Shown: in pieces, positions 8,114-42,457 of the stretch
How positions within the stretch are numbered: position 1 is the stretch's first letter
How the letters are laid out: each line of letters starts with the position of its first letter
NCBI GenBank assembly: GCA_963823665.1
Contig: CAWGMQ010000008.1
Span: 96,001 to 160,000, forward strand
Length of the DNA: 64,000 bases
Origin: an uncultured Planctomycetota bacterium
GTDB taxonomy: Bacteria > Planctomycetota > Planctomycetia > Isosphaerales > Isosphaeraceae
Reading direction: 5' to 3'
Position numbers and translations under genes: made by a program
The notes under the pieces: generated by a model
Told to the model about the DNA's origin: nothing
The model's input: the letters and a program-made list of their open reading frames with translations, nothing else
The model's database searches: none

Positions 8114-8230
8114 TCCCGGCTTCACGTCCAGTCGTTGCGTCGGAATTTCCCGTCCGGGCGCCAACTGCCCTGTTTATTTCCGCGGCGGATCGTATTATTA
8201 CGCTTAGAAAAGCGCGACAGGAGGAAGTTC

Positions 8231-11800: not shown

Positions 11801-11833
11801 ATGCTGATGGCTGCCGACGGAGCCGAGCGCTGA
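8812..11833 (+). CDS. Hanks-type Ser/Thr protein kinase with TM segment and TPR repeats (one frameshift near 8965)
   Basis: N-terminus MSFDRP...RVDAVCDGFEQAW starts at an ATGA overlap with the sigma stop; GCGGMGVV, VAVK, HRDLKPAN, DFG, GTPSYMAPE; C-terminal TPR helices. Confidence 0.9.
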
Positions 11834-12341: not shown

Positions 12342-12791
12342 TCATTCCCATTCATCGGACGGGCCTTGCGCCGTTTCGCCCAGGATTCGTTCATCCAGGC
12401 TCAGGCCAAAGCCGTACGGGTCGTCGATCTCCTGGATGACCGAGCACATCATGCGCAAGGCTTCTTGTTGATCGGAGGCTCGAGTTGCCAGACCTGACAG
12501 CCGCGAATCGATCTGCCTGATGCGGCGGTCGAGCTGATCCATCCACTCGAAAAGGAGGGTGAGTCCGTCGCGCGTGGCGGAGCACCGCGCACGCAGGCGC
12601 TGCGCGACGGACTTTTCATCAAGATGGTTGCCGGCCAGGGCTATCTCGATGCTCGAGGCGAGCTCGGCTTCCTGACGCGCAAACCTTTCAAGCTCGTCGC
12701 GCAATCCACGTGTGCCATCGCGCTCCGCCAATCCGGTCGATTTCTCTGCTGAGCTACTCATTGGACGCGCTCCGCTTATCTTGGCGGGCAT
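12342..12791 (-). CDS. Hypothetical coiled-coil protein
   Basis: Helical protein-like ORF overlapping the end of the deiodinase-like gene; start uncertain. Confidence 0.5.
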   Translation of the reverse strand: MPAKISGARPMSSSAEKSTGLAERDGTRGLRDELERFARQEAELASSIEIALAGNHLDEKSVAQRLRARCSATRDGLTLLFEWMDQLDRRIRQIDSRLSGLATRASDQQEALRMMCSVIQEIDDPYGFGLSLDERILGETAQGPSDEWE

Positions 12792-14044
12792 CGCGAGGAG
12801 TCAACTCGCCTCCTAGCGAGAACCTTGGTTTTCGGCGCCCGGGTTGCACCCTCTTCCTGCAAGAGCAGCACGAGCGAATGCTCCATCTCAGCGGGTTTGA
12901 AGAGATATGGCCCGCGCCCGCTCTTGAACGCGACCTTGCCCTCGCGGTCGATCACGTAGAGACGTCCCGGCATACCGCTGTAGCGAGTTCCGGCCGCGTC
13001 GTCGATCGTGTCGACGAGCATCGGGAAAGCCAGGGACATCACGCGGCCGCATTTCTGGGCGACCGCAACGCGCTCATCGTACGTTTTGGGCTGCGCGGTG
13101 ATCGCGCCGGAACGGTCGTTGCTCTCCATCCGCCAGCCGTCGGTCGGGTGTGCTTCGCGTACGTAGACCATCACGAACGTCGCGCGGTCCTTGTAGCGAT
13201 GGAAGAGCTTTTCGATGTTGCCCGTCTGACCGCGAAACGGCCCGCAGGTGAAACTGCCGAACACGAGCACGATGGGCTTGGTCCCGACCAGCTTGGAGAG
13301 CGTGATCTCGGCCTTGCCGTCGTTCGTCTTCAAAGTGAAGTCCGGAGCCGAGTCGCCGACCTTGGGCCCGGGCTCGAGCGAGCCGATCTCCTGAGTGAAG
13401 AGACCGCGCACGAGCGTGGCCTTCGAAGGACGCCCCGAACTGGCTGAAGACGGCCGCACGGGCGGCGGGGAAAAGGCCTCCTGAAGGTCCGAGAGCGACA
13501 GGAACCCCTGACCGCCGGAATCGACGGTTTTCCAGAATGCGTCGAGCTCGTCGCGCGTGACCTTGCCGTTGCCGTCGGTGTCGGCGCGCATGAAAAGCAT
13601 GGCGCCCGGAGAGCTCGCGAGCGCACTGCCTGAGAAATCGAAGTCGGTGGCCGAAAGCACCCGGTCTCTGTCGCGGTCCAGACGAGCGAAATCGCCGTCA
13701 TCGCCGGGAAACTCGCCACGCTCGACGCGGCCGTTGCCGTCCTTATCATAACGCTTGCGGGTCGCGGCCCAGTCGAATCGGGTCTGAGCCACGGCCGTGC
13801 GAAACCAGCCGAAGCTCGAGCTCATCGGTTCCTCGTTGAGGATCGCCACCAGCATGTCGACCCACTCAGGATGGTCGGGCCAGGACTCGTTGAGTGCCTT
13901 GACGACTTCCGACGTGTCGCCGCCAGGCATTTGAGCCATCTGCGGCGGCCGAGAGCCCGGGTCCTGGGCAGCGACCGGGGTCGCCACGGCAAGGCTCGCG
14001 GCCAGAACCGGCAGTGCTCGTTTCCAGAAATGATGCGTGATCAT
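12776..14044 (-). CDS. Secreted EF-hand plus iodothyronine deiodinase-like (thioredoxin-fold) protein
   Basis: Signal peptide; EF-hand loops DKDGNGRVERGE and DTDGNGKVTRDE; deiodinase-like motifs FGSFTCGPF, YVREAHPTDGW, GRGPY. Confidence 0.8.
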   Translation of the reverse strand: MITHHFWKRALPVLAASLAVATPVAAQDPGSRPPQMAQMPGGDTSEVVKALNESWPDHPEWVDMLVAILNEEPMSSSFGWFRTAVAQTRFDWAATRKRYDKDGNGRVERGEFPGDDGDFARLDRDRDRVLSATDFDFSGSALASSPGAMLFMRADTDGNGKVTRDELDAFWKTVDSGGQGFLSLSDLQEAFSPPPVRPSSASSGRPSKATLVRGLFTQEIGSLEPGPKVGDSAPDFTLKTNDGKAEITLSKLVGTKPIVLVFGSFTCGPFRGQTGNIEKLFHRYKDRATFVMVYVREAHPTDGWRMESNDRSGAITAQPKTYDERVAVAQKCGRVMSLAFPMLVDTIDDAAGTRYSGMPGRLYVIDREGKVAFKSGRGPYLFKPAEMEHSLVLLLQEEGATRAPKTKVLARRRVDSSRCPPR

Positions 14045-14134
14045 CGTGGGAGTCTCCGAGAATAGGGTAGGCAGTCTTATTTTCTGAGCATATCACGGAA
14101 TACGGTCACCTTGGGGCTCGTTCCGACCAGGTAC

Positions 14135-23772: not shown

Positions 23773-26700
23773 ATGAGGATGCCGATCACTTACGGACTGG
23801 CCGCGCTTTCGCTGCTCTTGGCCGGCTGGAATGCATCCGCTGGCGCAGACGCGATCGACTTCGATGCCACCGTTGCCCCGCTGCTCGCCAGGAGGTGCCT
23901 GGACTGTCACTCGGGTACCGAGCCCAAGGGCAAGCTCGACCTGTCGCGCCGCAGCAGCGGCGCTCGCCGGCGGCGAGAGCGGCAAGGTGATCGTGCCGGG
24001 CAAGCCCGACGAGAGCTTGCTCTGGGAACGGGTCTTGTCCGACGAGATGCCGCCAAAAACGCCATTGCCCGACAGCGAGAAGGCGGTGCTGCGAACGTGG
24101 ATCGCCACCGGTGCGGGCTGGGGCACCGATCCGATTGACGCCTTCCAGACGACAACCGCCGCCGCGCCGGCCGCGATTGGTGGTCGCTTCAACCCATGAG
24201 GCAGCACAATCCGCCGTCCGTGCGCAACCGCGACTGGGTGCGCACGCCGATCGATCGTTTCATTCTCAAGAAGCTGGAAGCACAACGGCATCTCGCCCAC
24301 GCCCGAGGCCGATCGCCGCACGCTCATTCGCCGCGTGTGCTTCGATCTCACCGGGCTGCCGCCGGAGCCGGACGCGATCGATGCGTTTATACGTGATGAT
24401 TCCCCCGATGCCTATTCCCGTATGCTCGACCGATACCTGGCCTCGCCGCAATACGGAGTGCGCTGGGCGCGCTGGTGGCTCGACCTGGCCCGCTACGGTG
24501 AGAGCAACGGATTCGAGTTCGACGAGTTCCGCCCGGCTGCCTGGCGTTATCGCGACTGGGTGGTCGACTCGCTCAATCACGATCGTCCTTACGACGAATT
24601 CGCCCGGCTGCAACTGGCCGGTGACGTTTTGCGCCCGAGACGACGCAGACGCCATCGCCGCGACCGGCTTCCTGGTTGCCGGGGCTTTTGACACCGTCGG
24701 CCAGACCCAGCAGTCGCTTGTCATGCGCGCTGTCGTGCGCAGCGACGAGATCGAAGACCTGGTCGGGACCGTCGGGCAAACATTTCTCGGCGTGACGGTC
24801 AACTGCGCTCGCTGCCACGACCACAAGTTCGACCCGATCCGACAGACGGAATACTATCGCATCGCGTCGGCGCTCTCTGGCGTGCGGCACGGCGAGCGCG
24901 ATCTCTCGGCATTCGACCGAAGGGCGGCCGCTTCAAGAATACAGATCAAGGAGTTGCAATCGCAGGTCGCAGCCATCGAACGGCCCGCGCGCGATCAGAT
25001 TCTCGCGACGCGTCCGAAGGTTGATTCCACGCCGCCGGATCCGGTCGCGGCCTGGAACTTCGAGGCCGGGCTCGTCAACGTGAAGGGCGGAGTCGAGCTT
25101 GCACTCGAGGGGGGCGCCAGGCTGACGCCGGTGGGGCTCGAGTGCGGGGGTGGAGCGGCGATGGCCAGGTCGACGCCGCTGGATCTCAAGCTTTCGAGCA
25201 AGACGATCGAGGTCTGGGTGCAGCTCGACAATCTCTCGCAGCGGGGCGGGGGCGCGATGACGATCGCGACGCGAGACGGTCTTGTCTTTGATTCGATTGT
25301 CTTCGGTGAACGCGAGCCAATCCGGTGGATGGCCGGCAGCGAGGGATTCAGCCGTTATCAGAGCGTTTCGGGCCCGGCAGAGAAAGACGCTCTCAACGTG
25401 CCCGTGCACATGGCGATCACGTACGGGGCCGACGGCACGATTCGCGTTTATCGCGACGGGCGTGCCGTACGGCACTGCGTACAAGGCCGCGAAACCGACG
25501 GTCTTCGCGCCGGAGAGACGGTGATTCTCTTCGGCCAGAGACACACGCCACCCGGCGGCAACCGCGGGCTCTCCGGCACGCTGCTCCGCGCCCGGCTGTA
25601 TGACCGGGCGCTCGAGCCTCGCGAAGTTGCGGCCTCGGCGGCGAGCTTCCGCGAATACATCCCTTCGAGCGCGATCGTCGCCGCCCTCATGCCGGAGCGT
25701 CGCGCGCAGCGCGCCAGGCTCCTGGACGCGATCGAGCGGCTGCGCTCCTCGTCCACGGCCAACCCGCGTGTTTACGCCATCGCGGCCAGGGAAGCCGGGC
25801 CGACGCACATCGAGATCCGCGGGAATCCCAATCAGCCCGGAGACGTGGTGAGCCCGGGCGGAATCGCCGCGATCGTCGCGCCGGGGAGCGATTTCGGGCT
25901 TGAGCCCGATGCACCGGAAGGCCCGGCGGCGCGCAGCGGCTGGCGTCGTGGATTTGCAGCGCCGCAGAACCCGCTCTTCGCGCGGGTCGTGGTCAACCGG
26001 CTCTGGCAGGCACACTTCGGCACGGGCCTGGTCGAGACGTCGAGCGATCTCGGCTTCAACGGCGGCACGCCGTCGCACCCGGAGTTGCTCGACTGGCTCG
26101 CGGCGCGAGATGGTCGACGCAAGGCTGGAGCCTGAAGGCGATGCACAGGCTGATCGTGACGTCGGCCGCGTATCCGACAGGCGTCGCGGTCTGGACGCTC
26201 AGGCCGCCGAGCAAGGACGCCGGCAATCGCTTGCTCTGGCGCAAGGCCCCGATGCGGCTCGAGGCCGAGATGGTTCGCGATGCGATGCTCGCGGTCTCGG
26301 GTGTGCTCGACCCCAGGCTGGGCGGCCCGAGCTTCTCGCGATCACTCGGACATCGTCAAGGCGCCCGGAACGCCGGCGATCCTGTATGCGGCAGTCGACC
26401 CCAGAACGCCGGGACTCAACCGGCGGACGCTTTTCCGGGCATGGGCTCGCGGCGGCCGAAGCCACTTGCTCGACGCGTTCGACTGCCCCGATCCGTCGAC
26501 TTCGGCACCGCGACGGGCCGTCACGACCACGCCGCTTCAGGCGCTCTCGTTGATGAACAATGCCCTGGTGCTTCATCTGTCCGAGGCTTTCGCCGCTCGG
26601 CTGGCGCGCGAAGCCGGGCAACGACGCCGGCCGCCAGGTCGAGCGAGCGTACCGGCTGGCGCTTGGCCGTGAGCCTGAGCCCGACGAGCGAGCCGTGGCG

Positions 26701-26781
26701 GTGCGCGTGGTCGAGCGGTCGGGCCTGCCGACGCTCGCGCGGGCGATCTTCAATTGCAACGAATTCCTCTACCTTGATTGA
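23773..26781 (+). CDS. Planctomycete cytochrome c / DUF1549-DUF1553 protein with LamG-like insert (multiple frameshifts)
   Basis: [83 protein letters not shown], spread over several frames. Confidence 0.85.
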
Positions 26782-26800
26782 TCGGCTGCAGGAGAACGCG

Positions 26801-28225
26801 ATGGATCGTCGCGAGTTTCTTTCCTGGGTGCAAGGCGGCCTGGCCGGCGCCGCGGCGGCATCGCTGCTCTTGCGTGACGGATCGGTCGCAGGCCGGCGAG
26901 CCGGCGAGGCGAGCCCGCCTTGCCCGCACTTTCCGCCGAAGGCGACCCGCGCCCTTCACATCTGCCTGTGCGGGGCGATGAGCCATATCGACACGTTTGA
27001 CTACAAGCCGGGCCTGATCGCCGCGCACGGCAAGTCGCTCAAGTCGTCGACCAGGCCCGACATCTTCTTCGGCCAGGTCGGCCGGCTGCGCCGGCCGGAC
27101 TGGACGTTTCGCCAGCGCGGCCAGAGCGGCCTCTGGGTCTCGGACCTGTTTCCCCACCTGGGCGCAGGTCGCCGACGAGCTGACGGTGATCCGGTCGATG
27201 GTCGCCGACACCTCGAACCACACGCCGGCGACGTTTCAGGAGAACAGCGGCTTTCGCTTGAACGGCTTTCCCGGCCGGGGCATGGCTTCGCTACGGGCTG
27301 GGCAGCGAGTCGGACGACTTGCCGGCGTTTGTGGTGATTCCGGATGCGCGCGAGTTTCCCGCCGGCGGCGCGATCAACTGGACCAACGGCTTTCTGCCCG
27401 CGCGGCATCAGGGCGTGGTGATTCGGCCGCAGGGCGAGCCGATCGACGATCTGTTCCCTGCCACGCCCGATCGACTCGGAATCGGAGGCCGGCACTCGCG
27501 AGCTGGTGGCGGCCATGAACCGCCGCCACCTCGCGCGGCACCCCGGCGACGATGCGCTCGCGGCCCGCATTCGGGGCTACGAGATGGCCGCGCGGATGCA
27601 GATCTCGGTTCCGCTGGTCGCCGACTTGAAGGAAGAGAAAGCGGAGACGCTCTCGCTTTATGGCATCGACCGCAAGGAGTCGGCCGATTTCGGCCGCGCG
27701 TGTCTGATGGCCCGGCGGCTGCTCGAACGCGGGCGTGCGGTTCGTGCAAGTTTACTCCGGCGGCACGTTCGGCAGCCCGCGGCGGAACTGGGACGGGCAT
27801 GAAGACATGAAGGCCAACCACGGCCAGGAAGCCGGGCGGATCGATCGGCCGCGTCGCGGGCTTGCTGCGCGATTTTCGCCGCCGCGGGCTGCTCGAGGAT
27901 ACGCTCGTCCTGTTCACGACCGAGTTCGGCCGCACGCCGTTCTCGGAGTCGGGGACTGACATCGGTCGGCCTGGGCCGCGATCACAACCCGCACGGCTTC
28001 AGCGTCTGGCTCGCCGGCGCCGGGCTCAAGCACGGCATGGCCTATGGCTCGACCGACGAGATCGGCTGGAAAGCGGCCGAGAATATCGTCACCTGGCCCG
28101 ACTTTCATGCCACGGTGCTGCATCTCCTGGGAATCGATCACAAGCGATTGACGTTTTATCACAATGGAATTCAGCGGCGGCTGACCAACGTGCATGGCGA
28201 GGTGATCAAGGCGATTCTGGCGTGA
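26801..28225 (+). CDS. DUF1501 family protein with Tat-like signal (multiple frameshifts)
   Basis: [65 protein letters not shown]. Confidence 0.85.
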
Positions 28226-28253
28226 GGCCGGATGCGAGAGGAGACTCAACACC

Positions 28254-29774
28254 ATGGCACAATCCCGCAAGCGGTTCGGCCGGTTGTTTTACGCGACATG
28301 CGTGATCGCGATACTTGCGACCGTGGTCGCGCTGTTCTGGCAGCCGCTGGCAATTCAAGTTCTCGCCTGGCGATTGACCAGGCAATTGCGCGACCCGGTC
28401 GCCGCGACCCGTCGCGACGCGGCCACCGAGCTTGTGCGGCTTGGTCCCTCGGCGACATCCTGGGTCGTCCGGGCGATGCGTGATCGCGATCCTCAGGTGC
28501 GAGCCGACGCGTGTTCGATTCTGCTGCAAACGACGCCGAATGATCCGGCAGGGGCCGTCGCGGCGCTGCTCGCCGCCGCGGGGGACAGTGATTCCGGCGT
28601 TCGCGCCGCCGCAGTGGCGCAGCTCGAAACGTTTCTCAGCCGCTATGGTGCGATGGTTGCACCAAGCGTTCGGGATCAAGCCCTGCTGCGCCTTTGTGAC
28701 TTGCTCGACGACGAATCTCCGCAGGTTCGCCGCCGGGTTCTCACGAGCTTCTTCATGGTCGGTCCACGGGCGAAGAATGTGGTGGGTAAGCTCGATCGCT
28801 CGCTCGAAGACGCCGATAAATCGTTGCGCGTCGCGGCCGCGGCAGCCATGCTTCGTATCGATCCGGATGCAACCCGTGCTCGCGTGAGCGTGGCCATGTC
28901 GTCATTGCTCACCGATCCGTCGGTGCGAATGGAGCACTGGCGATTGGTAGCGTCCCTGGTTCGTGCGCAAGGAGAAGACGCGACCGCCGAGCTGCTGATC
29001 AAGCACCTGGAACACCCGGATCGCCAGGCGCGAAGGCAGGCGACTTGACGACTTGATCGCACATTGTGCTGCGGGAAAGGGCACACGAGCCGCTATGCTT
29101 GAGGTCTTGAACGGCGGCGACGCGGGCATGAGTGAGGAGGCCGCGTTCTACTTTTTGAAAACCGAGCCGGCCATGGTCGCAAAAGCCGTTGAAATGTTGG
29201 CGAAACAAATTGTTCATCCGGACGAGGGGAGCTATCTGGCGTGGGATCTGGTCAAGAAAGCGAGAGAAGCGTCTCCGGACTCGATGGAGCTGCTCGCGTC
29301 GAAGCTGCTGGATCTCCTGGCCCACTCGCCCACGGCCGATGGCCGCGTGTTTGCGATCACCGCGCTTGGAGAGATCGGGCCGAAGGCTGCGCTTGCCGTA
29401 CCCGCGCTGCTTGAGCTTTCGAGTGGGAAGAACCTGGACGTCGCGACACGGGCGGTCGCGTCGCTCGTGAAAATCGATCCGCAGCGGCCGCCGCCAGGGT
29501 GCCGTCGCTCATCGAGTGGATGAGGGCGGGGCAGGGTGCCCACGTTCGGCTCCGCGCGATGGCTGCACTGCGTGACCTGGGCTCGGCGGCCTCGAGTGCG
29601 ATTCCGGTCCTGCTCGACATTGCGGACGAGGACGACCTGGCGATCTCAACGGGTGCGATCGAAGCTGTCTCGCGGATCGATCCCGTGACGGGAAGGACGC
29701 TCAAGCAGTCGATTGCACGCGGTGAGATCGGGACCAATGATCGCGCGGCGAGCGCGGTTTCCGGAGCCGCCTAG
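28254..29774 (+). CDS. HEAT-repeat protein with N-terminal TM anchor (frameshifts near 29045 and 29490)
   Basis: Repeats such as [22 protein letters not shown] and [17 protein letters not shown] across three consecutive ORFs. Confidence 0.75.
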
Positions 29775-31505: not shown

Positions 31506-33504
31506 GTCGAGTAGCGGAGGGACGGGTGTGACCCCGTCGCCTCCGCCCTCTTCAAACCGGACTTGCAGATTTCCCGCATCCGGCTTGCCCAAATCCTCTC
31601 GATCGAAGGCGATTCGCAGGGAGGCAGCGGTAAGTCATTTCAGGAACCGCAGGCCGAGGCTCTGCAGGTGGAAGTAAACTGACTTGCCTGCCGGGGTACG
31701 GTAGGCTCGCTGACTACGACGTTGCAAGTGACGCGTCAATCGGAGCAACATGAAGCTGTTGAGGTTCCGAAACCCATGGCTGGGATAGCCGTAGCGGAAG
31801 TAACCGCTCCAGCCTCTTGTCCAGCGGTTGAGATCGTCTATCACCTGACGGATCGAGACGAAACACCGCTTGGGCCCAGTCAGCTCTCGGACCTTGTCGT
31901 GTGCACGAGCCATCGACTTGATCGAAGGAAAGACGTTGAGATAGCGATGATCACGACCAAAGAGGTCGCGGTCGTATCGCAACGCAAATCCTAGAAAGTT
32001 CAAGCTCTGACCCGGTTCCTGCAGCTTGACGACTCGCGTTTTCTCGCGGTTGACGGTGAGCCGAAACCGTCCCTCTAACAGATTCTCGATCCAGTGAATC
32101 AATTGCTGAGATTGATAGCGTGCCAGGACCACAAAGTCATCGGCATACCGCACGAGTTTGGCGTTGGCCCAGCGACCAGGTCCGTCGAAACGATAAAACA
32201 GCTTCTCGAACCAATGCAGGTAGAGATTCGCCAGCAACGGTGAAATTACTCCACCCTGCGGCGTCCCCTGTTTCGGCCGAGTCACTTTAGTCTTACCGTG
32301 TTCGTCGGTCTCGATGACTGGGCTTTCCAGCCACATGCGGATCAGCGTCAGCACGGAGCGGGCGGCAATCCGTCGTTCCAGGCACTTGATCAATGCATCA
32401 TGTGGAATTGTGTCGAAGTACGATTTCAGATCCGCGTCATAGATCTCGCGAAACCCGGAGGTAACATGCTGACGGATCGTGTCAATCGCTTGGTGAGCAT
32501 TCCTTCCTGGACGAAACCCGAAGGAGCAGTTCAAGAAGTCAGCCTCAAAGATCGGCTCGAGTATCAACATGGCCGCCGTTTGGACGATCCGGTCTTTGAC
32601 CGTGGGAATTCCCAGCGGTCGCATCCGGCCGTCCGGTTTCGGGATATAGACGCGTTTGACCGGCTGCGGACGATAGCGTTTGGTGCGAAGCTCTTCGTGC
32701 AACTGCCGTATGTAGGCATCCCATGCAGGGTCATCCAATGTGACGAGGTCCTGACAGGTGACGCCGTCCACCCCGGCAGCGCCGTTGTGATTCAGCACCA
32801 GGGTCGCCGCAATCCGCAACACGTCTTCCCGATAGATCCGGTCGTACAGAGCGTAGAACCGGAACTTCGGCTCCTGCTTGGCCTTTTGACCTAGCTTCTT
32901 TCTCAGTTCAGAGACTTTCGGCGGTAGCAGGACCCCAGACTTCACTTCTGGCTCAGCCAGTTGTTGGTCCCAGGTCAGGCCACCGTGTTCTTCCGTAGTG
33001 GGACGTTTGTCCAAGCGGATCTCCTCACTTCTGATGAAGCGTGAATTTGGCAGGGGTCCTTTGCTCCACGGTGGTTAGCCGTATCGTCGCTACTACGACC
33101 CCCTCCGACTCCCGGCCAGGCCGCACGGCGGTTATGGTTTCCCGTCGGTCGTTGGTCAGAGATCACTTCCAGATCTCAGACCGCCAAGCCGGGCCTCTCA
33201 GGTTCCTCACTGATCTGTCGACGCCCGCCATCCCCTCTCACCCCGGGTAGCCCATCCGCTGCACGTGCTCGTTGCTTCACGGATGGTGTCAGGTTTCGGC
33301 ATCTTCGGAAGATTGACCACCACCACTGGTTTATCGAGGCCGAAACGGGTTCACGCTTTCGCATTACGGCTGACGTCTTCGCGTTCTCGGGCTCCGACGG
33401 CGCGGTTGCCCGCACCGCCGCCGAGTCGGCTTCATGGTGAACGAGCAATTGCCATGGGCAGTTCCTTTCAACTGTCGAGATCAGCGAGACTTAGCCTGAC
33501 GCAC
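31506..33504 (-). mobile_element. Group II intron (about 2.0 kb, apparently complete)
   Basis: 5' end GTGCG at 33504; domain V AAGCCGGATGCGGGAAATCTGCAAGTCCGGTTT and domain VI hairpin ending CTACTCGAC at 31506; internal RT ORF. Confidence 0.9.
31635..33014 (-). CDS. ltrA: Group II intron reverse transcriptase/maturase (no C-terminal HNH endonuclease)
   Basis: GAAGVDG, RPLGIPTVKDR, SFGFRPGR, GTPQGGVISPLLAN, YADD, FLGF; thumb/X domain RGWSGYF. Confidence 0.95.
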   Translation of the reverse strand: MDKRPTTEEHGGLTWDQQLAEPEVKSGVLLPPKVSELRKKLGQKAKQEPKFRFYALYDRIYREDVLRIAATLVLNHNGAAGVDGVTCQDLVTLDDPAWDAYIRQLHEELRTKRYRPQPVKRVYIPKPDGRMRPLGIPTVKDRIVQTAAMLILEPIFEADFLNCSFGFRPGRNAHQAIDTIRQHVTSGFREIYDADLKSYFDTIPHDALIKCLERRIAARSVLTLIRMWLESPVIETDEHGKTKVTRPKQGTPQGGVISPLLANLYLHWFEKLFYRFDGPGRWANAKLVRYADDFVVLARYQSQQLIHWIENLLEGRFRLTVNREKTRVVKLQEPGQSLNFLGFALRYDRDLFGRDHRYLNVFPSIKSMARAHDKVRELTGPKRCFVSIRQVIDDLNRWTRGWSGYFRYGYPSHGFRNLNSFMLLRLTRHLQRRSQRAYRTPAGKSVYFHLQSLGLRFLK

Positions 33505-33710: not shown

Positions 33711-34320
33711 GATGAACCCGCACCGCACACTGTCGTATCAGATCCAGGAATGCCGTCGGCTGGCGTCGTACTTGATTGATGGCGTCCGGGTTTACTCGGA
33801 CCGGGAGATCGCCGAGAGGCTCGGGGAGGACGAGGCGTGGGTTGCCGGCGTGCTTTACCCCGATCGTGTTCCAGCCGCGCCGCCGGTTGTCCCGGTTCCG
33901 ACCAACGGGCCGGTCCGTCCGGTGTGGGATCGGTACGACGCGGGTCGGCCGTCGGTGGGGACAGTCAATCCCATCGGAGTGCCGACGACTATGGTTTTTG
34001 ACAATCCATCGCTCGTTCGAGGCAATGGCAGCTTCGGGAATCAGCAGGTATGGTACCGATACGACGCGACTCCGCGGCCGGCCACGGCAGATTGCCTTGG
34101 AACACCCACCACGATGGCTTTCGACGGCCCATCGCACTATCGAGGGAACGGCGGCTCCAGCAATCGGCCGGTGTGGGATCGGTACGACGAGGGTTCGGCG
34201 CGGCTGGCGATCGTGAATCCCCTCGGCGCGCTGACAAACATGGTTTACGACGCTCACCCTGACCAAACTCGGATAGTCCTCTGGACGACACGCGGGAAGC
34301 CGAATGACCCGGCGACTTGA
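33711..34320 (+). CDS. HTH-like N-terminus plus three ~41-aa YD-like repeats
   Basis: YSDREIAERLG; repeats VW(D/Y)RYD...(NP/DC)(I/L)G..T.M.(F/Y)D; an identical 22-mer at 33919-33940 and 34168-34189; start approximate. Confidence 0.6.
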
Positions 34321-35111: not shown

Positions 35112-35341
35112 TTCTGTATCATAGGCTCACCGGGCCCTCAGCGAAACAGTGCCTGGTGGCCTCGATCACGACGAGAAGGGAGAAGGCCGCACGGAGCGTT
35201 CGGCACGGTCATCCAACCGGCTACCAGCACCGTGCGGCCTCAGCGTCAGGTTTCACCGGCCGAAATCGGATCCGGCCAGTTCGGAAAACGACCTGTTCCG
35301 GCTGGGACTTCAGGGCCATTACTTGCCCGCCCGCGCGGAAT

Positions 35342-35465
35342 TCAGGGCCAGGCGGAACCCGTTATCGTTCGTGCGGTTCGTCGGGTCGTTCGTGTTGCGG
35401 TTCGCCGTCCGGCAATTCGCCGCGTCGTTGTCCCACCCGCCGCCACGGTTCACGCGGTTCGAGCC
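35342..35465 (-). repeat. DGR template repeat (TR)
   Basis: 124-bp ungapped match to 37149-37272; in the VR frame it reads GSNRVNRGGGWDNDAANCRTANRNTNDPTNRTNDNGFRLAL with 10 AAY codons. Confidence 0.96.
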
Positions 35466-36477
35466 TCTTGGGATCGTCCACCACGCCCTGTTCTAACACA
35501 GAGCGGCGAAATGTCCAGCTCATTGCCCCGCCGGCCTTCGCGAACGCGACCAACGCGGCCAGACGTTGCTGAAGAGCCGGCTCACTCAGGAATCCCAGGC
35601 GCTCTGCGCGCTCCAGAACCCGCACGCGCCGTCGCCAGCGACGTTTGCTCCTCCGGTTCAGCTCCACGTGAGTGGGCCAGATTCGACAACCGAGGAAGGG
35701 AACACCCGCAGCCGTTCGCCGCACTTCTCCCGGCTTGAACTCCAGGAGCAGGTGAGATGACGCGAAATCCGCGCATCGCCCGTGAAAATCGACCAGGCGC
35801 TTACGATTCGTGTCCCAGAGTACCAGATCGTCCATGTATCGCACGTACCCGCGAACGCGCAGCGTCACCTTCGCAAATCGATCAAGCCAGCCCAGATAGA
35901 AGTTCGCGAGGTGCTGTGACGTCAAGCTGCCGATCGGCAGGCCGATTCCCAGGTCGCCTCGATAGGCCCGGATGATCCGGTTGAACAACTCCAGGAGCCG
36001 CCGATCCTTGAATCGCATCGCGAGCAGATTGATCAGCCTGTCGTGCGAGACACTGTCGAAGTATTTCCGTACGTCGAGCTTCAGGAACCACTCGAACTTG
36101 CGGCTAAACTGATGCGCCCGATGAATGGCGGCCTCGCGCCCCTTGCCGGTTCGACAGGCGAACGTGTCATCGATGAGCCAGCGATCCATCACCGGCTCGC
36201 ATACGTTCATGATCGCGTGGTGCAGGACGCGTTCCTCGAAGCACGGCGCGGTGATCACGCGCTCCTTGGGGTCCCGGATCACGAATTGTTGAAATCGACC
36301 GACGCGAATCGAGCCGTTGCGAATCCCATCTGAGATCACCGCGATGCGCTCGTCGAGCCGTGACGCGAACTCCCGCACAATGGTCTGCCCGCGCCGGCCG
36401 CGGGCGGCCTTGTGGAACGCCAGGCGCAGATTCTCGAGCTCGGGAATTCGCTCAAAGAGGTTCGCCGCTCGGCGCAT
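35362..36477 (-). CDS. DGR reverse transcriptase
   Basis: PKERVITAPCFEERVLHHA, FACRTGKG, LKLDVRKYFDS, GLPIGSLTSQHLAN (SQ variant typical of DGR RTs), YMDD, PFLG. Confidence 0.95.
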   Translation of the reverse strand: MRRAANLFERIPELENLRLAFHKAARGRRGQTIVREFASRLDERIAVISDGIRNGSIRVGRFQQFVIRDPKERVITAPCFEERVLHHAIMNVCEPVMDRWLIDDTFACRTGKGREAAIHRAHQFSRKFEWFLKLDVRKYFDSVSHDRLINLLAMRFKDRRLLELFNRIIRAYRGDLGIGLPIGSLTSQHLANFYLGWLDRFAKVTLRVRGYVRYMDDLVLWDTNRKRLVDFHGRCADFASSHLLLEFKPGEVRRTAAGVPFLGCRIWPTHVELNRRSKRRWRRRVRVLERAERLGFLSEPALQQRLAALVAFAKAGGAMSWTFRRSVLEQGVVDDPKRLEPREPWRRVGQRRGELPDGEPQHERPDEPHER

Positions 36478-36940
36478 TTTGCCGGGGTCCCAGAGTCAAA
36501 AGCAGCGGGAGGAGCTGTGCCGCGTACTTATCGATCTTTCCGTTTCCAATGCCTTCGATTTGCGCCAGATCGCTTTTGGACTGGCAGCGGCGCTGCACCA
36601 TCTGCGCCAACTGCTCGTTGGTGAACAGTGTGTAGACTGGTACGGCTTCGGTCTGGGCCAGCTCCTTGCGAAGCGATCGCAACTGCGAAAAGACCGCGAA
36701 CTCCTCGGCTGACAATATCGCTTTGTAATCCACCCGGCTCCGCGACAGGTTCAGGTTGTGCCCGGTCTCGCCAGGCGCATGGCTCAGGTAGTCGATGCAG
36801 ATCGCCCATAAGGAGTTGACCCCCTGGTCGATCAAGCGCCGGTCTATCGACAAAACCTTGTGGCGAGCCAAAAAACCGTTCAGTTCGTGCTCGAAGGCGG
36901 CAGAATCGTTCACAGGAACCGTGAAGAAGCGCAATGCCAT
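36452..36940 (-). CDS. HRDC-domain DGR accessory protein (162 aa)
   Basis: MALRFFTVPV...; HRDC motif FSQLRSLRKELAQTEAVPVYTLFTNEQLAQM...LAQIEGIGNGKIDKY; overlaps the RT start by 26 nt. Confidence 0.88.
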   Translation of the reverse strand: MALRFFTVPVNDSAAFEHELNGFLARHKVLSIDRRLIDQGVNSLWAICIDYLSHAPGETGHNLNLSRSRVDYKAILSAEEFAVFSQLRSLRKELAQTEAVPVYTLFTNEQLAQMVQRRCQSKSDLAQIEGIGNGKIDKYAAQLLPLLLTLGPRQNAPSGEPL

Positions 36941-36981
36941 CCTGCGGACCTCAGACGTACACCTAAATGAATCCGGCGCGG

Positions 36982-37001
36982 GCAGGGGGTTTACCCCCTG
37001 C
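36982..37001. other. GC-rich hairpin downstream of the VR (candidate DGR target-recognition element)
   Basis: GCAGGGGG-TTTA-CCCCCTGC, an 8-bp stem with a 4-nt loop. Confidence 0.6.
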
Positions 37002-37107
37002 ACCCCCTTTTTCCCTGCCAAGATGCCACCCGCTCCGCCGTCGGCCTCCGGCCCCTCCGGTCGCGGCTCCGCTGCGCTCCCTACGGGCCTCCGCCCGACG
37101 GCTTCGC

Positions 37108-40100
37108 TTACTTGCTCTTGCCAGTCTCCGAGGCAGTCCCAGCCAGACTCAGGGCCAGGCGGAACCCGTAAACGTACGTGCGGTACGACGGGACGCCCGT
37201 GCTGCGGTGCGCCGACCGGCAATCCGCCGCGACGTCGCCCCACCCGCCGCCACGGGACACGCGGTCCGAGCCCGTAGCCGGCCCCGACGGATCGGACGCC
37301 AGCTTCGTATCGTAACCTTCGTACCAATCGTGCGTCCACTCATAGAGGTTTCCGTGCAGGTCGAACAGGCCGCGTCGACATGGCCGAAGCTCCCGCGGAG
37401 GATGGACGTGCTTGCCGCTGTTCTCCACGTACCATCCGAACCGGCCCAGCAGACTGGCGTCGCTTCCGAAGCCATAGGCCGTCCGCGCCGGCTCGAGCGG
37501 CCACTTCCCATTCCGCTTCCGTGGGTAGGCGAAACCCACGCCGGCCGGGCTCCGACGGCCAGTTGCGCGGTGCCCAGCTTGCGCTCGGGTTTGGCTCACG
37601 TGGATGCTTCTCGTTATTCAACGTCGCGGGGTCAGCGTACGGCTGGTCGCTCTCCGGCAGTCCCATCTGCTGCCCCAGCCAGCGGCAGAAGCCCACGCTG
37701 TCATACCAATCGGCAGCATACCCCGCGTCTTCCGGTTTCGCGTCGAGTTGCTGCATGTAGCCAGCATACGTGGGTTGGAACGCGATCAACTCCTCGAGGG
37801 TGACCTCCCTGTCCAGGAGCGCGAAGGGGCGTGTGAGCCGGACCGGGTGCCGCACCTCATCCTTCTGCCGTTGGGGCTTAGCGTCCGCGGACCCGATCAT
37901 GGAGTCCCCTGGCGGAAAGACGATGAAGGTGTAGTAGAACGTCTTGTTCGGCGCCGGCTTCGTGGGCGACGTCGGTTTCACCGTGATGCGCAGCGTGAAC
38001 CACTGGCGGTCTGGCGAATAAGGAACAGGGTTCTGATCCACCTGGCGGGCCAAGTCCGCCTGGCCCCATTGCCGCAACAGCCAGCCCGCGGCGCCATGGA
38101 CTCCTGAACTGGGGTCGTCGCGATACCAGGCTGCCAGCCGCTTGATCAGAGGGTCTCGACGCGACTCGGGAACGTCGGCCAGCGCGAACTCTCCCAGCGC
38201 CAAAAGCAGCGCGTACCGGGCGTCGCGCGGATGTCGATTGGCCGGACCGTTGTCGGGCTTTTCCAGGCAGTCCAGAAGCGCATCCGCCCCAACCCCGCGA
38301 GACCGGCAACGGAAGATGAACTGCGTCAGGGCTTCCGGATCATCGCTCACCTCGAAAACCGGCAGGATCTTTTCGCGCTCGCCCAGGCGTAAGAGCGTCA
38401 CCGCGGCGCCTGCGCGGCGCTGGCCGAACGCGACTCGCTCCACGGATCCCAGCGCCTCGGCCGGCTGAGTGGAGGCGATCTGGCTGAGCTGGTCGACCAC
38501 TGCCGGCGAGCGGCTCCCCGCGACAATCGGGTAGAGCACATCGAATTGCTCGGGGGTGGCGACGGCGAGCAGGCTGGTGAGCCGGGCTACGTCGCTCCCG
38601 GCAAAGTCGGCTAGCGCGTTGGCGGCGCCCAGTCGCTGGGCATCGCTCGCCCGCGCGTCTGCGAAGAGGCGCTCCAGATCCCCGACCAATCGTGCGCGAA
38701 TCGGCCGCAGCGCCTCACGGAGCAGCGGCTGGTACTCCGCGTTGGACGAGACAAGTTGCCCGGCGATGAACTTCACGTCCGCGGCGGACCACCACGCCTG
38801 CTCGGACGCGGGGATAAAATCGGCCAGAGCCAGCGCCGCGCGGAACCTCCGTTGCGTGTCGGATTTGTCATCGCGCAGCAGGCCGCGAAAGCGCTCCGTG
38901 AGACGGGCCGCCGAGGGACGAAGCAACGCACGGATCGGCAAGACGTAGGTCACCTTGCCCGTGAGCAATTCCTCCACCAATGGTTCCACCTGCGACGGAT
39001 CGCGGGAGACCATCGCAAGCCGCGCGTGGATCTGCCCCCGCTTCTCGTCCGGAGTCTCGGCCGTTCGGGCAACGAGCGAAGAGAGCAAGGGCATGGCCAC
39101 GCCAGGATTGGCGTCGAGCTGCTTCACGATGTCCGGCACCTGGGACGGCTCGGCGCTCAGCAGGCGGCCCACCAACCCCTCGACTCGGGTGGCCTCCTGT
39201 CGCGCCGCGACTTGATTGCGCAGGACGAGCCCGGCTGAGGCCACGGCGATCATTCCTGCCAGCGCCAAGGCGGAGCGCCAGCCGTGTGTTCGCGCCGCCT
39301 GGCGCATCATTTTCTGCTGGGTCTCGGTCCAGTGGGTGGAATCCGTCAGCGTGTGGATTCTTAGCCATTCAGTGAGCGACGGCAGATGGCGGCTTTCGGG
39401 CTTGGCGTTCCAGAGCGCGGAGCGCTCCGCCAGCTTCAGCTCGGCGCGACCACGGCGTGTCTCCTTTTGTTTTCTGGTCAACCAGTCGCGAAGCGAGGGC
39501 ACGAGGTAGTCATGCGTAAGCTGATAATACCGACCTCCCGGGGCCGCGGTCGTTTGCTCTGCTCCCGGGCCTTCCGGATCGGTCGGAGTGATCAACCGAA
39601 GCTCGCTGTCGAGGATGTGCAGCACCTCGTGGAAGTCTCGGGGCCGGGCTGCGTTTCCAGCGGCGGCTTGCAGCTCTTGTTCGGACCTCATCTGGCCCTT
39701 GATGTCGGTGCCCGATTCCGGCAGCAGCGCTTTCGAGCACGGCCTGCGCCGCCTTCTGGTGCATGCGATGGCGGGGATTCGCTTGAGGCGAGACGAACGT
39801 TTCCTCGAGAAACGTGACGCCGACGCCCGCCGCTCCCCCCACTTCTCGCAGCGTGGCGGGCGTCCACTGTTTCGCTTTCATCATCTCGGCGAAAAGTGCT
39901 AGCCTCACCGAGACAACCTTCTTGCCCTGCGCCAGCTCTGCGATTGCCTGGTCCAGGAATTGCCGCTGGTCCTTGCTGATCTCCCGGCCGTTCTCAGGCA
40001 GGTTCCCGAGGGCCGCTCCGAACGCCGTGAGCACTTTCGTGGCGTGCCGCGTATCGAAGAGATCGACCAGGGCGGTGTTGTGGCCCTGGATCAGCTCCAC

Positions 40101-41686
40101 TTCCAGGTCGGCGAGAAACCGGCTCACCGCCAGCCAGAAATCGTCGCGCACCAGCACGATCGCCTGCACACGCTCGCCGTCGCACTGGCGCAGGGCGGCG
40201 ATCAGCTCCGAATCGTCGTCGCCGCGCCGGGCGTGCAGCCACTGCTCGAACTGGTCGATCACGAGCAGGAGCTTGCGGCCTGCGCCGAGCACGCGGCCCT
40301 TGCGCACCAACGCCAGTGAATCCACCAGGCCTGCGTCGTCGGGCAGGGCGGGGCAGGCCTTCTTCAGTCTGGTCAGGAGCCTCTGCTCCGTGTCATCGGC
40401 GGTCGCCTCGATGTGCACCGAGCGTACGTGCGCCGCCAGCCGGGGCAAGAGGCCTGCTTTCAAGAGTGATGATTTGCCGCAGCCGGATGGGCCATAGATC
40501 AGGCCGACGCGAAAGGTTTTTTCCGGGTCGATCGTCTCGATCTGCGTCTTCCAGAAGCGGATGCTTTCGGGCAGGCCGTCGCGGTTTCTGGGGCCGGGAA
40601 GCAGCTCGAGGAAGAAGTCGGCGTCGTGCTCGTCGAACGAGCGCAGACCCTTGGGCACGATCTTGATGGGGCGTTGATTTGAATCTGAGGGTACAAGCGG
40701 CGAAACCGGAGAGATCGCCTCGGGCACCGGCTCAGGCCGTGGGCGCGTCACAACTGGCGCTGCTGGCAGACCTGCTGGCACTGTCTTGACGAAATCGTGC
40801 AGGTCCTCGGCCATGTCGCGGGCCGTGGTGTAGCGATCGGCCGCCCGCTTCGCGAGGGCCTTCAGGCAGATACGCTCGAGCTCTTTGGGAATCGTGTCAT
40901 CGACCTGTCGGGGCGGGCCGGGTCTGCGCTCTTGATCTGATCGACCAGGTCGGCGATCGAGTCGGCCTTGAAGGGACGGCGGGCGGTCAGCAGCTCGTAG
41001 AACACGACGCCGAGGCTGAAGATATCGGAGCGGCCGTCGACGCGATGGCCTTCGCCTCGGGCTTGCTCGGGGCTCATGTACACCGGGGTGCCGGCCATTC
41101 CAGCGCGCTTGCCGAAATCTTCGTCCCGCAGCGCCAGCCCAAAATCCGCGACGCAAGGCTTTCCACGTTCGTCCAGCAGGATATTCGCGGGCTTGATGTC
41201 GCGATGCACAAGCCCTTTGGTATGGGCGTAGTGCAACGCATCGGCGACCGCGGCGACCAAGGCGGCCGATTCCTGAAACGGCGGCCGGCCCTGCAACATT
41301 CGCTCTTTCAGGTCGCTGCCCTGAAGGAATTTGGACACAACGTAGCACAGCCCATCCTCGGTGCGCCCGGTGTCCCACACGGGTACGATGTTCGGATGCT
41401 CGAGCTGTGCCAGGATCTTGGCTTCGGTGAGATACGATTCGAGATCTTCGGGCGCGGCGATTCGCTCGACGTTCGGCATCTTGATGGCCACGGCGCGATT
41501 CAGCTCGTTGTCATGGGCGAGATAGACTCGGCCGAAACCGCCTTTTCCGAGCAGCCTGATGACCCGGTAACGGCCGATCTTGGTCGGGTCGGTCGAGGGG
41601 AACGACTCGGGCAGGATCGAGGATATCGTTGGATCGAGTGGGTCGGATGGTTGTTGGTTTTGGTCCATCGTGGATACCGCGGACAT
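37108..41686 (-). CDS. DGR target: Ser/Thr kinase - nSTAND1-like NTPase - TM - helical region - FGE-sulfatase/CLec domain (about 1,500 aa; frameshifts near 40915, 39730 and 37490)
   Basis: GKGGFG, HRDIKPAN, DFG, GTPVYMSPE; Walker A GPSGCGKSS and Walker B LLVIDQFE; hydrophobic LALAGMIAVASAGLVL; FGE motifs RLPTEAEWE, GLFDLHGNLYEW, RGGGW, GFRLA. Confidence 0.9.
37149..37272 (-). repeat. DGR variable repeat (VR)
   Basis: Encodes GSDRVSRGGGWGDVAADCRSAHRSTGVPSYRTYVYGFRLAL; 18 differences from TR, all at TR adenines. Confidence 0.96.
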
Positions 41687-41874: not shown

Positions 41875-42141
41875 TGCGCGCATCTCGGAGACCTGCGGTC
41901 ACGCGGCGGGGCGGGGTCGGAGACCCGCGCCCAACATTGCGACTGCGCATCTCGGAGACCTGCGGTCACGCCCTGGGGCGGGGTCGGAGACCCGCGCCGA
42001 ACACTGCGCCTGCGCGTCTCGGAGACCTGCGGTCACGCCCTGGGGCGGGGTCGGAGACCCGCGCCCAACACTGCGCCTGCGCGTCTCGGAGACCTGCGGT
42101 CACGCGCTGGGGCGGGGTCGGAGACTCGCGCTCAACATTGC
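41875..42141. repeat. Tandem array of four 67-bp REP-like units
   Basis: TCTCGGAGACCTGCGGTCACG starts at 41883, 41950, 42017 and 42084. Confidence 0.9.
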
Positions 42142-42457
42142 GTGGACGATTCAGCGTTTTCTGATGCGCGACGGTTTTGTGATGGCGGCCGCCGGAATGC
42201 ACCCCCCCCTGGCCCCCCCTTCTAAAGGGGGGAAGCTTGGCGCAACATTCGCGGCCGGAAATCTCCGCTACTTATGCTGCAAGTTTTCAACAGACCGCCC
42301 TGGCCCCCCCTTCTAAACGACGGAGCCTCGCGCAACATACGCGGGGGGAAATCACCGTTCCTTGGATTACAAGTTTTCAACATCCCACCGCCCGCCCATC
42401 CATCGCGGGATTAATTCACAGCGGTAGCCAACGCTCCGTCGCCGTGTAGAGCCAATC

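Follow-up and report, generated by a model that had tools for sequence, protein, structure and literature searches.

Does the 64,000-nt stretch of DNA analyzed here, from an uncultured Planctomycetota bacterium (assembly GCA_963823665.1, contig CAWGMQ010000008.1, positions 96,001 to 160,000; hereafter the window, in whose coordinates all positions are given), carry a complete and working diversity-generating retroelement (DGR), and what kind of protein does that element diversify? The first-pass annotation, made from the letters and their open reading frames (ORFs), had proposed that a DGR between positions 35342 and 41686 hypermutates the tip of a receptor joining a Hanks-type kinase, a STAND-like NTPase, a membrane helix and a variable lectin fold. 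On the evidence presented below, we consider it very probable that the locus is a complete chromosomal DGR, one that has HRDC and lacks avd, that it probably functions and has been active recently, and that it diversifies a kinase-STAND-lectin receptor. Its core parts, given in their order along the minus strand (target, HRDC gene, reverse transcriptase, template repeat), are as follows.

37108..41686, minus strand: DGR target gene, about 1,527 codons, delimited by tblastn of a 1,562-aa paralogue
37149..37272, minus strand: variable repeat (VR), coding for the last 41 residues of the FGE/C-type-lectin (CLec) domain of the target
36452..36940, minus strand: HRDC accessory gene, 162 aa, HRDC 1.5e-18 (Pfam)
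35362..36477, minus strand: DGR reverse transcriptase (RT), 371-codon ORF with a conserved core of about 336 aa, RVT_1 2.9e-13 (Pfam)
35342..35465, minus strand: template repeat (TR), 124 nt, directly after the RT

The finding is carried above all by the two repeats. Recomputation of their alignment, which the first-pass annotation had named among the places where its proposal might fail, returned identical counts: TR and VR align without gaps over 124 nt, the similarity ending abruptly on both sides, and they differ at 18 positions, each a T on the plus strand and hence an A on the coding minus strand (9 A>T, 7 A>G and 2 A>C). Mismatches affect 18 of the 29 TR adenines and 0 of the 95 other bases (Fisher p = 1.7e-14), and this pattern is the classical DGR signature, not a product of chance. 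When the TR is read in the target frame, its adenines occupy codon position 1 (15) or 2 (14) and never position 3; nine codons are AAC and one is AAT, and 16 of the 18 A-containing codons are altered in the VR, all of them non-synonymously. The reading frame of the VR is that of ORF 37108-37599 (minus strand), a frame stopping at 37149 having been rejected as wrong. The FGE-sulfatase match (profile positions 161-254 of 255) has the VR as its final 41 codons; the earlier placement of the repeat in the last ~41 residues of the FGE/CLec domain stands, and the target itself continues for 13 codons past the repeat. The TR and the final 34 codons of the RT ORF overlap, in different frames. Homing would appear to have been recent, because the VR has 0 differences at the 95 non-A positions compared with 8 of 95 in the decayed VR of a paralogue described below.

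The RT had been identified as DGR-type from its motifs, and several lines of evidence agree with that assignment. Both GLPIGSLTSQ and YMDD are present; the best match in the PDB is 8ub7, a 328-residue 'reverse transcriptase' (E 3.9e-45) which we take for the bRT of the Bordetella phage, with retron-type and group II intron entries at 1e-14 and weaker; and tblastn gives 34% identity to brt of Bordetella phage BPP-1 (E 6e-37). In a maximum-likelihood tree of 24 RTs, the window's DGR RT, 12 relatives, BPP-1 Brt and a Bacillus phage RT (BalMu-1) form one clade with 100/100 support, outside which stand nine group II-type RTs, including the window's own, and the motif [ILV]GxxxSQ is found in 15/15 members of the DGR clade and QGxxxSP in 9/9 of the group II-type enzymes. 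The placement of the RT apart from group II intron RTs is thus direct; its separation from retron RTs is indirect, through the PDB scores, because no bona fide retron RT is among the 24. NCBIfam holds no DGR RT model, and every RT match in a scan of that collection fell far under its cut-off.

The HRDC gene is where it had been placed, between TR and VR, and overlaps the start of the RT gene by 26 nt; an HRDC homologue lies directly upstream of the RT in 18/18 loci checked. There is no avd at the locus, and the genome's single match to the Avd-like family 23S_rRNA_IVP is on another contig. Residues 1-55 of the HRDC protein (36775-36940, minus strand) form a conserved N-terminal domain (RFFxVP...ELNxFL...W) that has no Pfam match and is present in 15/15 aligned homologues. 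A complex between RT and HRDC protein was predicted with a score of 0.63 (three runs, 0.62-0.65), the best of three controls reaching 0.00, from alignments of our own making (14 RTs, 15 HRDC proteins) and on a calibration that is only rough, the mark being one that 116 of the 157 solved complexes attain, and 2 of the 215 mismatched pairs. Contact agreement between the runs was at least 47% and partner pLDDT (predicted local distance difference test) at least 72. The modelled interface brings the C-terminal helices of the RT (residues 285-328) together with HRDC residues 95-109 and 130, and draws on the invariant HRDC residues within 99-109, among them V100, Y103, T107 and N108 of the alignment. 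The prediction supports binding of the RT to the HRDC protein; we know of no solved RT-HRDC complex.

Beyond the coding sequences and the repeats, three features of the locus are candidates for cis-acting parts.

35187..35341, minus strand: conserved structured RNA domain 3' of the TR (covariation, 12 loci)
37033..37134, minus strand: CGGAG array, six motifs in a G-rich stretch between the target stop codon and the HRDC gene
36982..37001, minus strand: GC hairpin, perfect over 8 bp, loop of 4 nt, 148 nt beyond the VR

The sequence that follows the TR for about 150 nt can be aligned across 12 loci into 32 base pairs in seven helices, with compensatory changes in 19 of the 32 pairs and with 91.6% of cells paired, compared with 28-50% when partners are slid by 1-3 columns; the observed level of covariation was attained in 0 of 500 shuffles, in a comparison favoured by the use of the same alignment for RNAalifold folding and for scoring and with the window's row aligning poorly in helix 3. 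Two single-stranded blocks, GGTGCTGGTAGC and CGAAnGCTC, are nearly invariant. Folded alone, the TR region gives a z of 0.17. Rfam has no family for this domain or for the VR flank, its matches here being the group II intron nearby and one below threshold that is due to chance. We suggest that the domain is probably a functional 3' part of the DGR template RNA. It resembles, by position alone, the Sp region of the BPP-1 DGR RNA, and the RNA segment after the TR of the BPP-1 element is needed for cDNA synthesis according to the accessible part of one report (10.1101/2023.10.23.563531).

The 160 nt after the VR are rich in the pentamer CGGAG: the first 12 loci carry 2-6 copies each and 53 in total, which makes 4.4 per 160 nt where the background is 0.30, and none on the opposite strand. 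Since the motif was picked after these 12 loci had been viewed, it was tested on 31 VR flanks of 23 other loci, in which the rate was 1.77 against 0.22. Four or more copies were found in 8 of the 31 flanks: those of every one of the five planctomycete loci, that of one Lewinellaceae locus and those of the two VRs in a Verrucomicrobiaceae locus; 11 of the 31 had none. In two DGRs with two VRs each (our loci L082 and L044), a near-identical CGGAG element follows both VRs, and the array therefore appears to go with the VR and not with a promoter of the HRDC gene. We regard it as a candidate target-site element. The region downstream of the VR was also considered as a structure, but the consensus fold is weak (-4.87 kcal/mol), and the region is treated here as a motif array. 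A comparable 8-bp hairpin is present 89-148 nt after the VR in 5 of the 12 loci (here and in L038, L040, L041 and L047).

The target gene is assembled in four frames, for reasons examined further on, and its domains are described here across the frame breaks.

40937..41569, minus strand: Hanks-type Ser/Thr kinase domain, Pkinase 2.1e-46
39400..40650 (approximate limits), minus strand: nSTAND1 NTPase domain, Pfam 3.6e-18, spanning frameshift 2
39221..39277, minus strand: predicted single transmembrane helix (hydropathy)
37922..39214, minus strand: HEAT/ARM-like solenoid, about 430 aa, all-alpha in an AlphaFold2 (AF2) model
37149..37927, minus strand: FGE-sulfatase/C-type-lectin-fold sensor domain, spanning frameshift 3

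The architecture first proposed, kinase, STAND NTPase, membrane helix and lectin, was borne out when the suggested profile searches were run on the pieces of the target, which returned Pkinase, nSTAND1 and, in two pieces, FGE-sulfatase (2.3e-13 and 5.7e-14, Pfam), together with one hydrophobic helix. The kinase scores 158.9 bits, and its catalytic motifs are intact in the translation (GKGGFG, AVAIK, HRDIKPAN and ADFG), the C-lobe continuing in the next frame after frameshift 1. In the window fragment the nSTAND1 family (PF20703) reaches 66.8 bits, the cut-off being 27.1, and in the paralogue 70 bits, there covering profile positions 3-374 of 379; a Walker A motif (GPSGCGKSS) and a Walker B motif (LLLVIDQ) are read in the translation of the NTPase. 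The membrane segment has a Kyte-Doolittle 19-residue mean of 1.78, and of 27 full-length homologues 24 have a single hydrophobic segment at the corresponding place, two have none and one has two; the sequence of the segment varies from homologue to homologue while the hydrophobicity is retained. These hydropathy profiles suggest a single-pass protein with the N terminus inside and the C terminus outside, the stalk and the lectin domain lying beyond the cytoplasmic membrane, and the N-in orientation is favoured because kinase and NTPase need ATP.

The ~430 residues between the membrane helix and the lectin domain have no Pfam match. An AF2 model of 37922-39214, made from the window sequence with a 29-row alignment, is an all-alpha solenoid of 23 helices (pLDDT 90.7), for which Foldseek gave PP2A PR65, importins and designed armadillo proteins as best matches, with TM-scores only up to 0.35; as modelled, the region is a HEAT/ARM-like stalk, and no finer assignment is made. 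The closest solved relative of the lectin domain is TvpA of Treponema denticola (2y3c, E 4.3e-24), PvdO and true FGEs following at 6e-12 and weaker. We treat the FGE-fold domain as a putative binding domain and not as an enzyme, the matches speaking for membership in the fold family. A PADLOC search with the intact paralogue yielded 34 matches, the 25 listed being generic kinase models (PD-T4-6, mad6, PglW and MkoA), and the target of L038 yielded one weak match.

The cassette is neither confined to this genome nor evenly distributed. When the RT was searched for in 100 further genomes from the family, 16 of them gave matches at E <= 1e-30, and with the source genome counted, such RTs occur in 13 of 53 genera, a patchy distribution; the best match in the family is 74% identical and that in the sole genome of the same genus only 56%, and some genomes carry three or four of these RTs. 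A-biased TR/VR pairs with the same geometry, the VR about 1.8 kb upstream, the RT between them and the TR after the RT, were found in 11 of 12 fetched family loci, the twelfth being cut by a contig end. The lectin tips are joined to a variety of modules in these loci: nSTAND1-FGE (L038), Pkinase-FGE (L040, L041, L042 and L047), TIR-Pkinase-FGE (L043 and L046), TIR-FGE (the second target of L044) and caspase-FGE (L048), the N termini of the targets in L039 and L044 being unannotated. Within the same DGR lineage (L038-L048, L060 and L064), FGE/CLec tips were also seen on nSTAND1-WD40 proteins.

A scan of one genome per species added 31 loci from Planctomycetota, Saprospiraceae and other Bacteroidota, Verrucomicrobiota, KSB1, a delta-proteobacterium and a Chromatiaceae metagenome-assembled genome (MAG), and A-biased TR/VR pairs are present in 24 of the 31. 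Of the loci that gave no pair (L054, L058, L063, L068, L073, L074 and L080), six are stretches of only 2.2-7.5 kb. One of the 31 (L059), on the complete chromosome of a cultured planctomycete, has the identical target architecture with HRDC, RT and TR: its target of 1,676 aa matches Pkinase (2e-55), nSTAND1 (4.8e-14) and FGE-sulfatase (2e-31), its HRDC protein matches at 1.3e-17, and its RT is 58% identical to the RT described here.

Homologues of the target itself are numerous. Among 8,000 candidate database proteins scored, 5,791 match the paralogue at E <= 1e-10, and kinase, nSTAND1 and FGE-sulfatase families occur together in 112 of the best 120 homologues listed. For 27 of these 120, which we chose to span 55-76% identity, the mean entropy of the VR columns is 2.67 bits at the codons that contain A in the TR (n = 18) and 0.50 bits at the others (n = 23; Mann-Whitney p 5e-8); this concentration suggests that the family as a whole varies at DGR-addressable positions. 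The source genome holds about eight near-full-length paralogues and many partial kinase-nSTAND1 genes. Its intact paralogue P0001 (1,562 aa, contig 5, L017:1370-6055, minus strand) carries at its 3' end the one further full-length copy that a BLAST search of the genome with the TR returned (L003:1501-1624), at 80% identity. This copy differs from the TR at 25 positions, of which 17 are TR adenines and eight are not, three of the eight falling within the final 21 nt; identity to the TR at non-A positions is 91.6%, compared with 70.3% between the two genes over the 210 nt upstream; the copy has no RT adjacent and no CGGAG motif in its 3' flank. We read it from these features as a former or orphaned target that has decayed. 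It was considered as a second live target, which the eight non-A mismatches, their incidence in the last 21 nt and the missing array make unlikely.

We suggest the following course of events. The HRDC gene, the RT, the TR and the structured 3' RNA domain would be made as one transcript, and the RT, through its C-terminal helices, would probably be bound to the HRDC protein, as the model predicts. The RT would then copy TR RNA into cDNA while misincorporating opposite adenines; adenine-directed misincorporation by the RT is established for DGRs. The cDNA would take the place of the VR, at the target gene's 3' end, where up to 18 codons could be rewritten. Kinase and nSTAND1 NTPase would lie in the cytoplasm, with the HEAT-like stalk and the variable lectin tip outside the cytoplasmic membrane, and a ligand that binds at the tip would drive NTPase-dependent oligomerisation and kinase signalling, in the manner of an NLR-like 'antigen sensor'. 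The view of the target as a receptor whose specificity is diversified by the logic of an NLR or an antigen receptor is supported, each of its elements having held.

A number of observations weigh against this reading, and they are set out together here. The RT ORF extends 104 nt into the TR, adding 34 codons in another frame, unlike those of its relatives, in 11 of which the RT stop lies between -25 and +38 nt from the TR start; the RT of the closest relative has its stop codon right after the shared ...VDDP. Over the last 21 nt of the repeat TR and VR are identical, so that the repeat holds no difference of the kind that distinguishes the initiation-of-mutagenic-homing site (IMH) from its counterpart IMH*, and no significant hairpin follows the VR immediately, the DNA there folding no better than shuffled sequences do (z = 0.53). 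The topology of the target comes from hydropathy, and the targets of the two nearest RT relatives (L038 and L067) show no hydrophobic segment at that place. There is no Avs model among the 25 of 34 PADLOC matches listed for the paralogue, and the RT-HRDC score carries the rough calibration and author-made alignments already noted. The sequencing runs that contain the locus are soil metagenomes in which it has a small share, with no RNA run listed; no contig from four such runs covers 36526-37188, and one touches the edge of the VR (37267). Exact scans of the metagenome contigs with each VR flank gave 0 matches. To these must be added the condition of the assembled target gene, to which we return below.

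The alternative that survives best accepts the DGR and disputes what the receptor is for: the diversified lectin would tune environmental, nutrient or cell-cell (kin) signalling through the kinase, and immunity would play no part. The genome offers an ample background for such a role, with well over 100 Ser/Thr kinase loci and many kinase-nSTAND1 paralogues (159 matches at E <= 1e-20), and there are no defence genes nearby in the window; the lack of an Avs model among the 25 of 34 PADLOC matches listed points the same way. The accessible parts of two papers lend it further weight, regulatory tuning being argued for the cyanobacterial STK-CLec targets (PMC7517822) and kin recognition being raised as an alternative for other DGR targets (PMC10907252). 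Against it, the same DGR lineage diversifies lectins on TIR, caspase, TIR-kinase and STAND modules, which are typical effectors of conflict systems, and STAND NTPases are established as the core of NLR-type immunity (PMC10907252, accessible part). We hold ordinary signalling to be a possible but less favoured explanation, and the reading of the target as an NLR-like antigen sensor remains the one we prefer.

A second alternative is that the element is a fossil, its target now a pseudogene with three real frameshifts and its cassette in decay. The breaks concerned are the following.

40914..40919, minus strand: frameshift 1, coding-strand C run, independent contig with one additional base
39729..39733, minus strand: frameshift 2, GAAAG, one surplus base relative to the paralogue frame
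37483..37488, minus strand: frameshift 3, GC dinucleotide run, independent contig with two additional bases

Searched by tblastn with P0001, the assembled target gives four collinear pieces, 63-68% identical to the paralogue and free of stop codons within their frames, with breaks at ~40898-40916, 39729-39733 and 37484-37488, in short runs (CCCC, AAA and GCGCG). When Logan contigs of the four soil-metagenome runs were aligned to the locus, exactly two indels were found in all. A 151-nt contig from one run (X1), lying at 40848-40997 with two other differing letters, has a 'G' inserted behind 40918, and a 303-nt contig from another (X3), at 37267-37567 with no other differing letter, has 'CG' inserted behind 37483, which gives back ...RAGARTAYGFG..., the same as in the paralogue; both insertions restore the target frame exactly, with the qualification that the depth is below 5, that a single low-depth contig may err and that the X1 contig possibly derives from another strain. 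Two independent differences that each restore the frame exactly would nevertheless be difficult to account for in another way. No near-identical contig listed for the four runs crosses frameshift 2. The frame-corrected target invoked at the outset therefore needs three corrections, two of which repair demonstrable assembly errors; the same cannot be said of frameshift 2.

Errors of this kind seem to be frequent in the assembly (16.46 Mb, 12 contigs, 91.9% completeness), because unrelated genes of the window are split likewise, as are several paralogues elsewhere in the genome, which appear as abutting pieces. Within the window, a PSCyt2/Laminin_G_3/PSD1 gene and a DUF1501 gene (23991-27807, plus strand) are spread over three to four frames, and two abutting HEAT_2 ORFs (28206-29520, plus strand) may be one gene. 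Given that two of the three breaks are absent from independent short-read contigs, we think it highly likely that all three are (long-read) assembly indels and that the target gene is intact in nature. The three corrections, the lack of a contig across frameshift 2, the existence of a decayed VR in the paralogue and the displaced stop codon of the RT all speak for a fossil. They are outweighed by the two sites that are in frame in independent contigs, with insertions exactly as predicted, by the unrelated neighbours broken in the same way, by the intact RT and HRDC ORFs with their catalytic motifs, by the 0 of 95 non-A differences between VR and TR and by the stop-free pieces, and we consider a fossil improbable. 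The remaining alternative, a plain duplication or gene conversion between lectin paralogues without retrohoming, could appeal to the many FGE-domain paralogues and to the second 124-nt copy at 80% identity on another contig, but it is refuted by the mismatch spectrum (all 18 differences on the adenines of one copy, p 1.7e-14), by a TR that is non-coding in the lectin frame context and directly follows an RT of the DGR clade, and by the recurrence of the pattern in 11/12 and 24/31 related loci, and its probability is negligible.

A wider proposal may be put forward tentatively, and we would not be surprised to see it fail. The HRDC-only cassettes with the TR after the RT, found in Planctomycetota, Verrucomicrobiota and Bacteroidota, might constitute a distinct DGR class, in which HRDC would take the place of Avd at the C-terminal helices of the RT, the ~150-nt 3' RNA would serve as scaffold or primer and the CGGAG array would stand in for the BPP-1 hairpin; the planctomycete kinase targets would then be outside-in, hypermutable, NLR-like receptor kinases with an extracytoplasmic lectin, unlike the intracellular sensors proposed so far.

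The setting of the element is chromosomal and non-phage, as had been supposed. The window contains genes for a class II aminoacyl-tRNA synthetase, ABC transporter parts, an aminotransferase, an Orn/DAP decarboxylase, a signal peptidase and sigma factors, along with families typical of planctomycetes (DUF1559 with an N-methyl motif, DUF1549, DUF1553, DUF1501 and DUF1569), and no phage structural gene was found among the 121 ORFs scanned in its 64 kb. A group II intron (31506-33467, minus strand) is a separate element, 1.7 kb past the RNA domain 3' of the TR; its Rfam matches lie at 31506-31588 and 33231-33467 (Intron_gpII 46.7 bits, above the gathering score; group-II-D1D4-6 E 8e-10, below it), its RT/maturase (intron-encoded protein, IEP) ORF is at 31638-33074, and at least eight further group II-type RT copies are found elsewhere in the genome. 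Between this intron and the DGR, the unannotated sequence at 33916-34251 (plus strand) holds an 87-nt direct repeat (76% identity, spacing 249 nt) with a 35-nt sub-repeat every 123-126 nt. Just upstream of the target start, at 41878-42142 (plus strand), are four tandem 67-bp units with a 93% match, and at 42207-42382 a 90-bp repeat in 1.9 copies; a regulatory role for the 67-bp repeat was considered and rejected, as it is a dispersed intergenic repeat of the genome with 49 matches across contigs. Further away, at 12779-14092 (minus strand), an ORF combines EF-hand motifs with an iodothyronine-deiodinase/AhpC-TSA-like thioredoxin fold (T4_deiodinase 1.2e-26), an unusual pairing in bacteria, and at 8114-11830 (plus strand) an ECF (extracytoplasmic function) sigma factor gene of the planctomycete type (PF07638) has immediately after it a gene of 1,005 codons for a Ser/Thr kinase that carries TPR repeats, one more kinase gene with a repeat sensor among many here.

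What the locus offers is a clean and complete case in which a DGR has a signalling receptor as its target, in a planctomycete that lives free in soil and has a genome of 16 Mb, and its relatives indicate that one DGR lineage swaps lectin tips among kinase, TIR, caspase and STAND modules. The RNA domain, the VR-flanking array (absent from the decayed paralogue target) and the RT-HRDC interface provide testable handles on avd-less DGRs, and the cultured relative with the same architecture (L059) makes such tests feasible.

TvpA of T. denticola is a lipoprotein that is not known to carry a kinase or an NTPase. Its DGR, as far as the accessible literature goes, contains HRDC and has the VR at the C terminus of an FGE-type CLec fold, as here. 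The BPP-1 DGR (mtd-avd-TR-brt, AY029185.2) shares with the present element the RT clade, the IGSLTSQ and YMDD motifs, the adenine-specific transfer from TR to VR, a CLec-fold gene with the VR at its 3' end and structured RNA after the TR; it differs in being phage-borne, in having Avd in place of HRDC and the TR upstream of the RT, and in diversifying a tail fibre. Avs proteins and other bacterial NLR-like antiviral STAND NTPases have the same tripartite layout of effector, NTPase and sensor, but their sensors are cytosolic TPR-type repeats, whereas the putative sensor here is a DGR-diversified lectin behind a predicted membrane helix.

Whether the architecture is undescribed, a point that the first-pass annotation had left to a search, can be answered: the combination of kinase, nSTAND1 and FGE-sulfatase (FGS) domains with a DGR is in print (PMC8195603, PMC10907252 and PMC7517822), and so is the logic of an NLR-like antigen sensor, so far as the accessible parts of these papers extend, a limit that applies to all that follows. 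No new principle is therefore at stake, hypermutated STAND/kinase-lectin 'antigen sensors' being already in the literature. Kaur, Iyer, Burroughs and Aravind (2021, PMC8195603) described STAND NTPase-FGS proteins with N-terminal effectors that include S/T/Y kinases, named the nSTAND1 clade, reported that the proteins are frequently linked to DGR components and presented FGS domains as potential analogues of hypermutating adaptive immune receptors. The lectin of their systems is described as an intracellular sensor of invaders and the accessory as a four-helical (Avd) protein, whereas here a predicted membrane helix separates NTPase from sensor, and the locus has HRDC as its accessory and no avd. 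Dore et al. (2024, PMC10907252) showed that chromosomal DGRs 3 and 6 of Thiohalocapsa PB-PSB1 and their clade 5D diversify the C-terminal CLec of nSTAND1 or NACHT proteins with effectors at the N terminus, for example peptidase and TIR, Pkinase and transmembrane annotations occurring among the targets, and read these proteins as antigen sensors. The present case differs in host phylum and in uniting kinase, nSTAND1, membrane helix, HEAT stalk and CLec in one polypeptide; the RT of the only Chromatiaceae locus that we found (L083) is 41% identical to the RT here over residues 16-272.

Vallota-Eastman et al. (2020, PMC7517822) reported cyanobacterial STK-CLec proteins, in which a Hanks-type kinase is joined to a DGR-diversified C-terminal CLec, with remote or decayed paralogue targets of graded VR/TR homology that resemble the contig 5 paralogue described above; the word 'NTPase' occurs 0 times in the main text as accessible, and most targets are predicted to be cytosolic, unlike the topology proposed for the target here. 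In the survey of Wu et al. (2018, PMC5758913), which lists kinase and NTPase target compositions, architecture C comprises the HRDC-containing DGRs (14 of 372), about half of which also have avd; the present element has HRDC alone and its TR after the RT. Limited searches and the accessible parts of these four papers (PMC8195603, PMC10907252, PMC7517822 and PMC5758913) gave no account of a membrane helix or an extracytoplasmic sensor in this kinase family, of the RNA domain 3' of the TR, of the CGGAG array or of the RT-HRDC interface. What the present locus adds to the known systems, then, is new in three respects: the RNA domain that covaries 3' of the TR, the array of CGGAG motifs that follows the VR and the predicted RT-HRDC complex.

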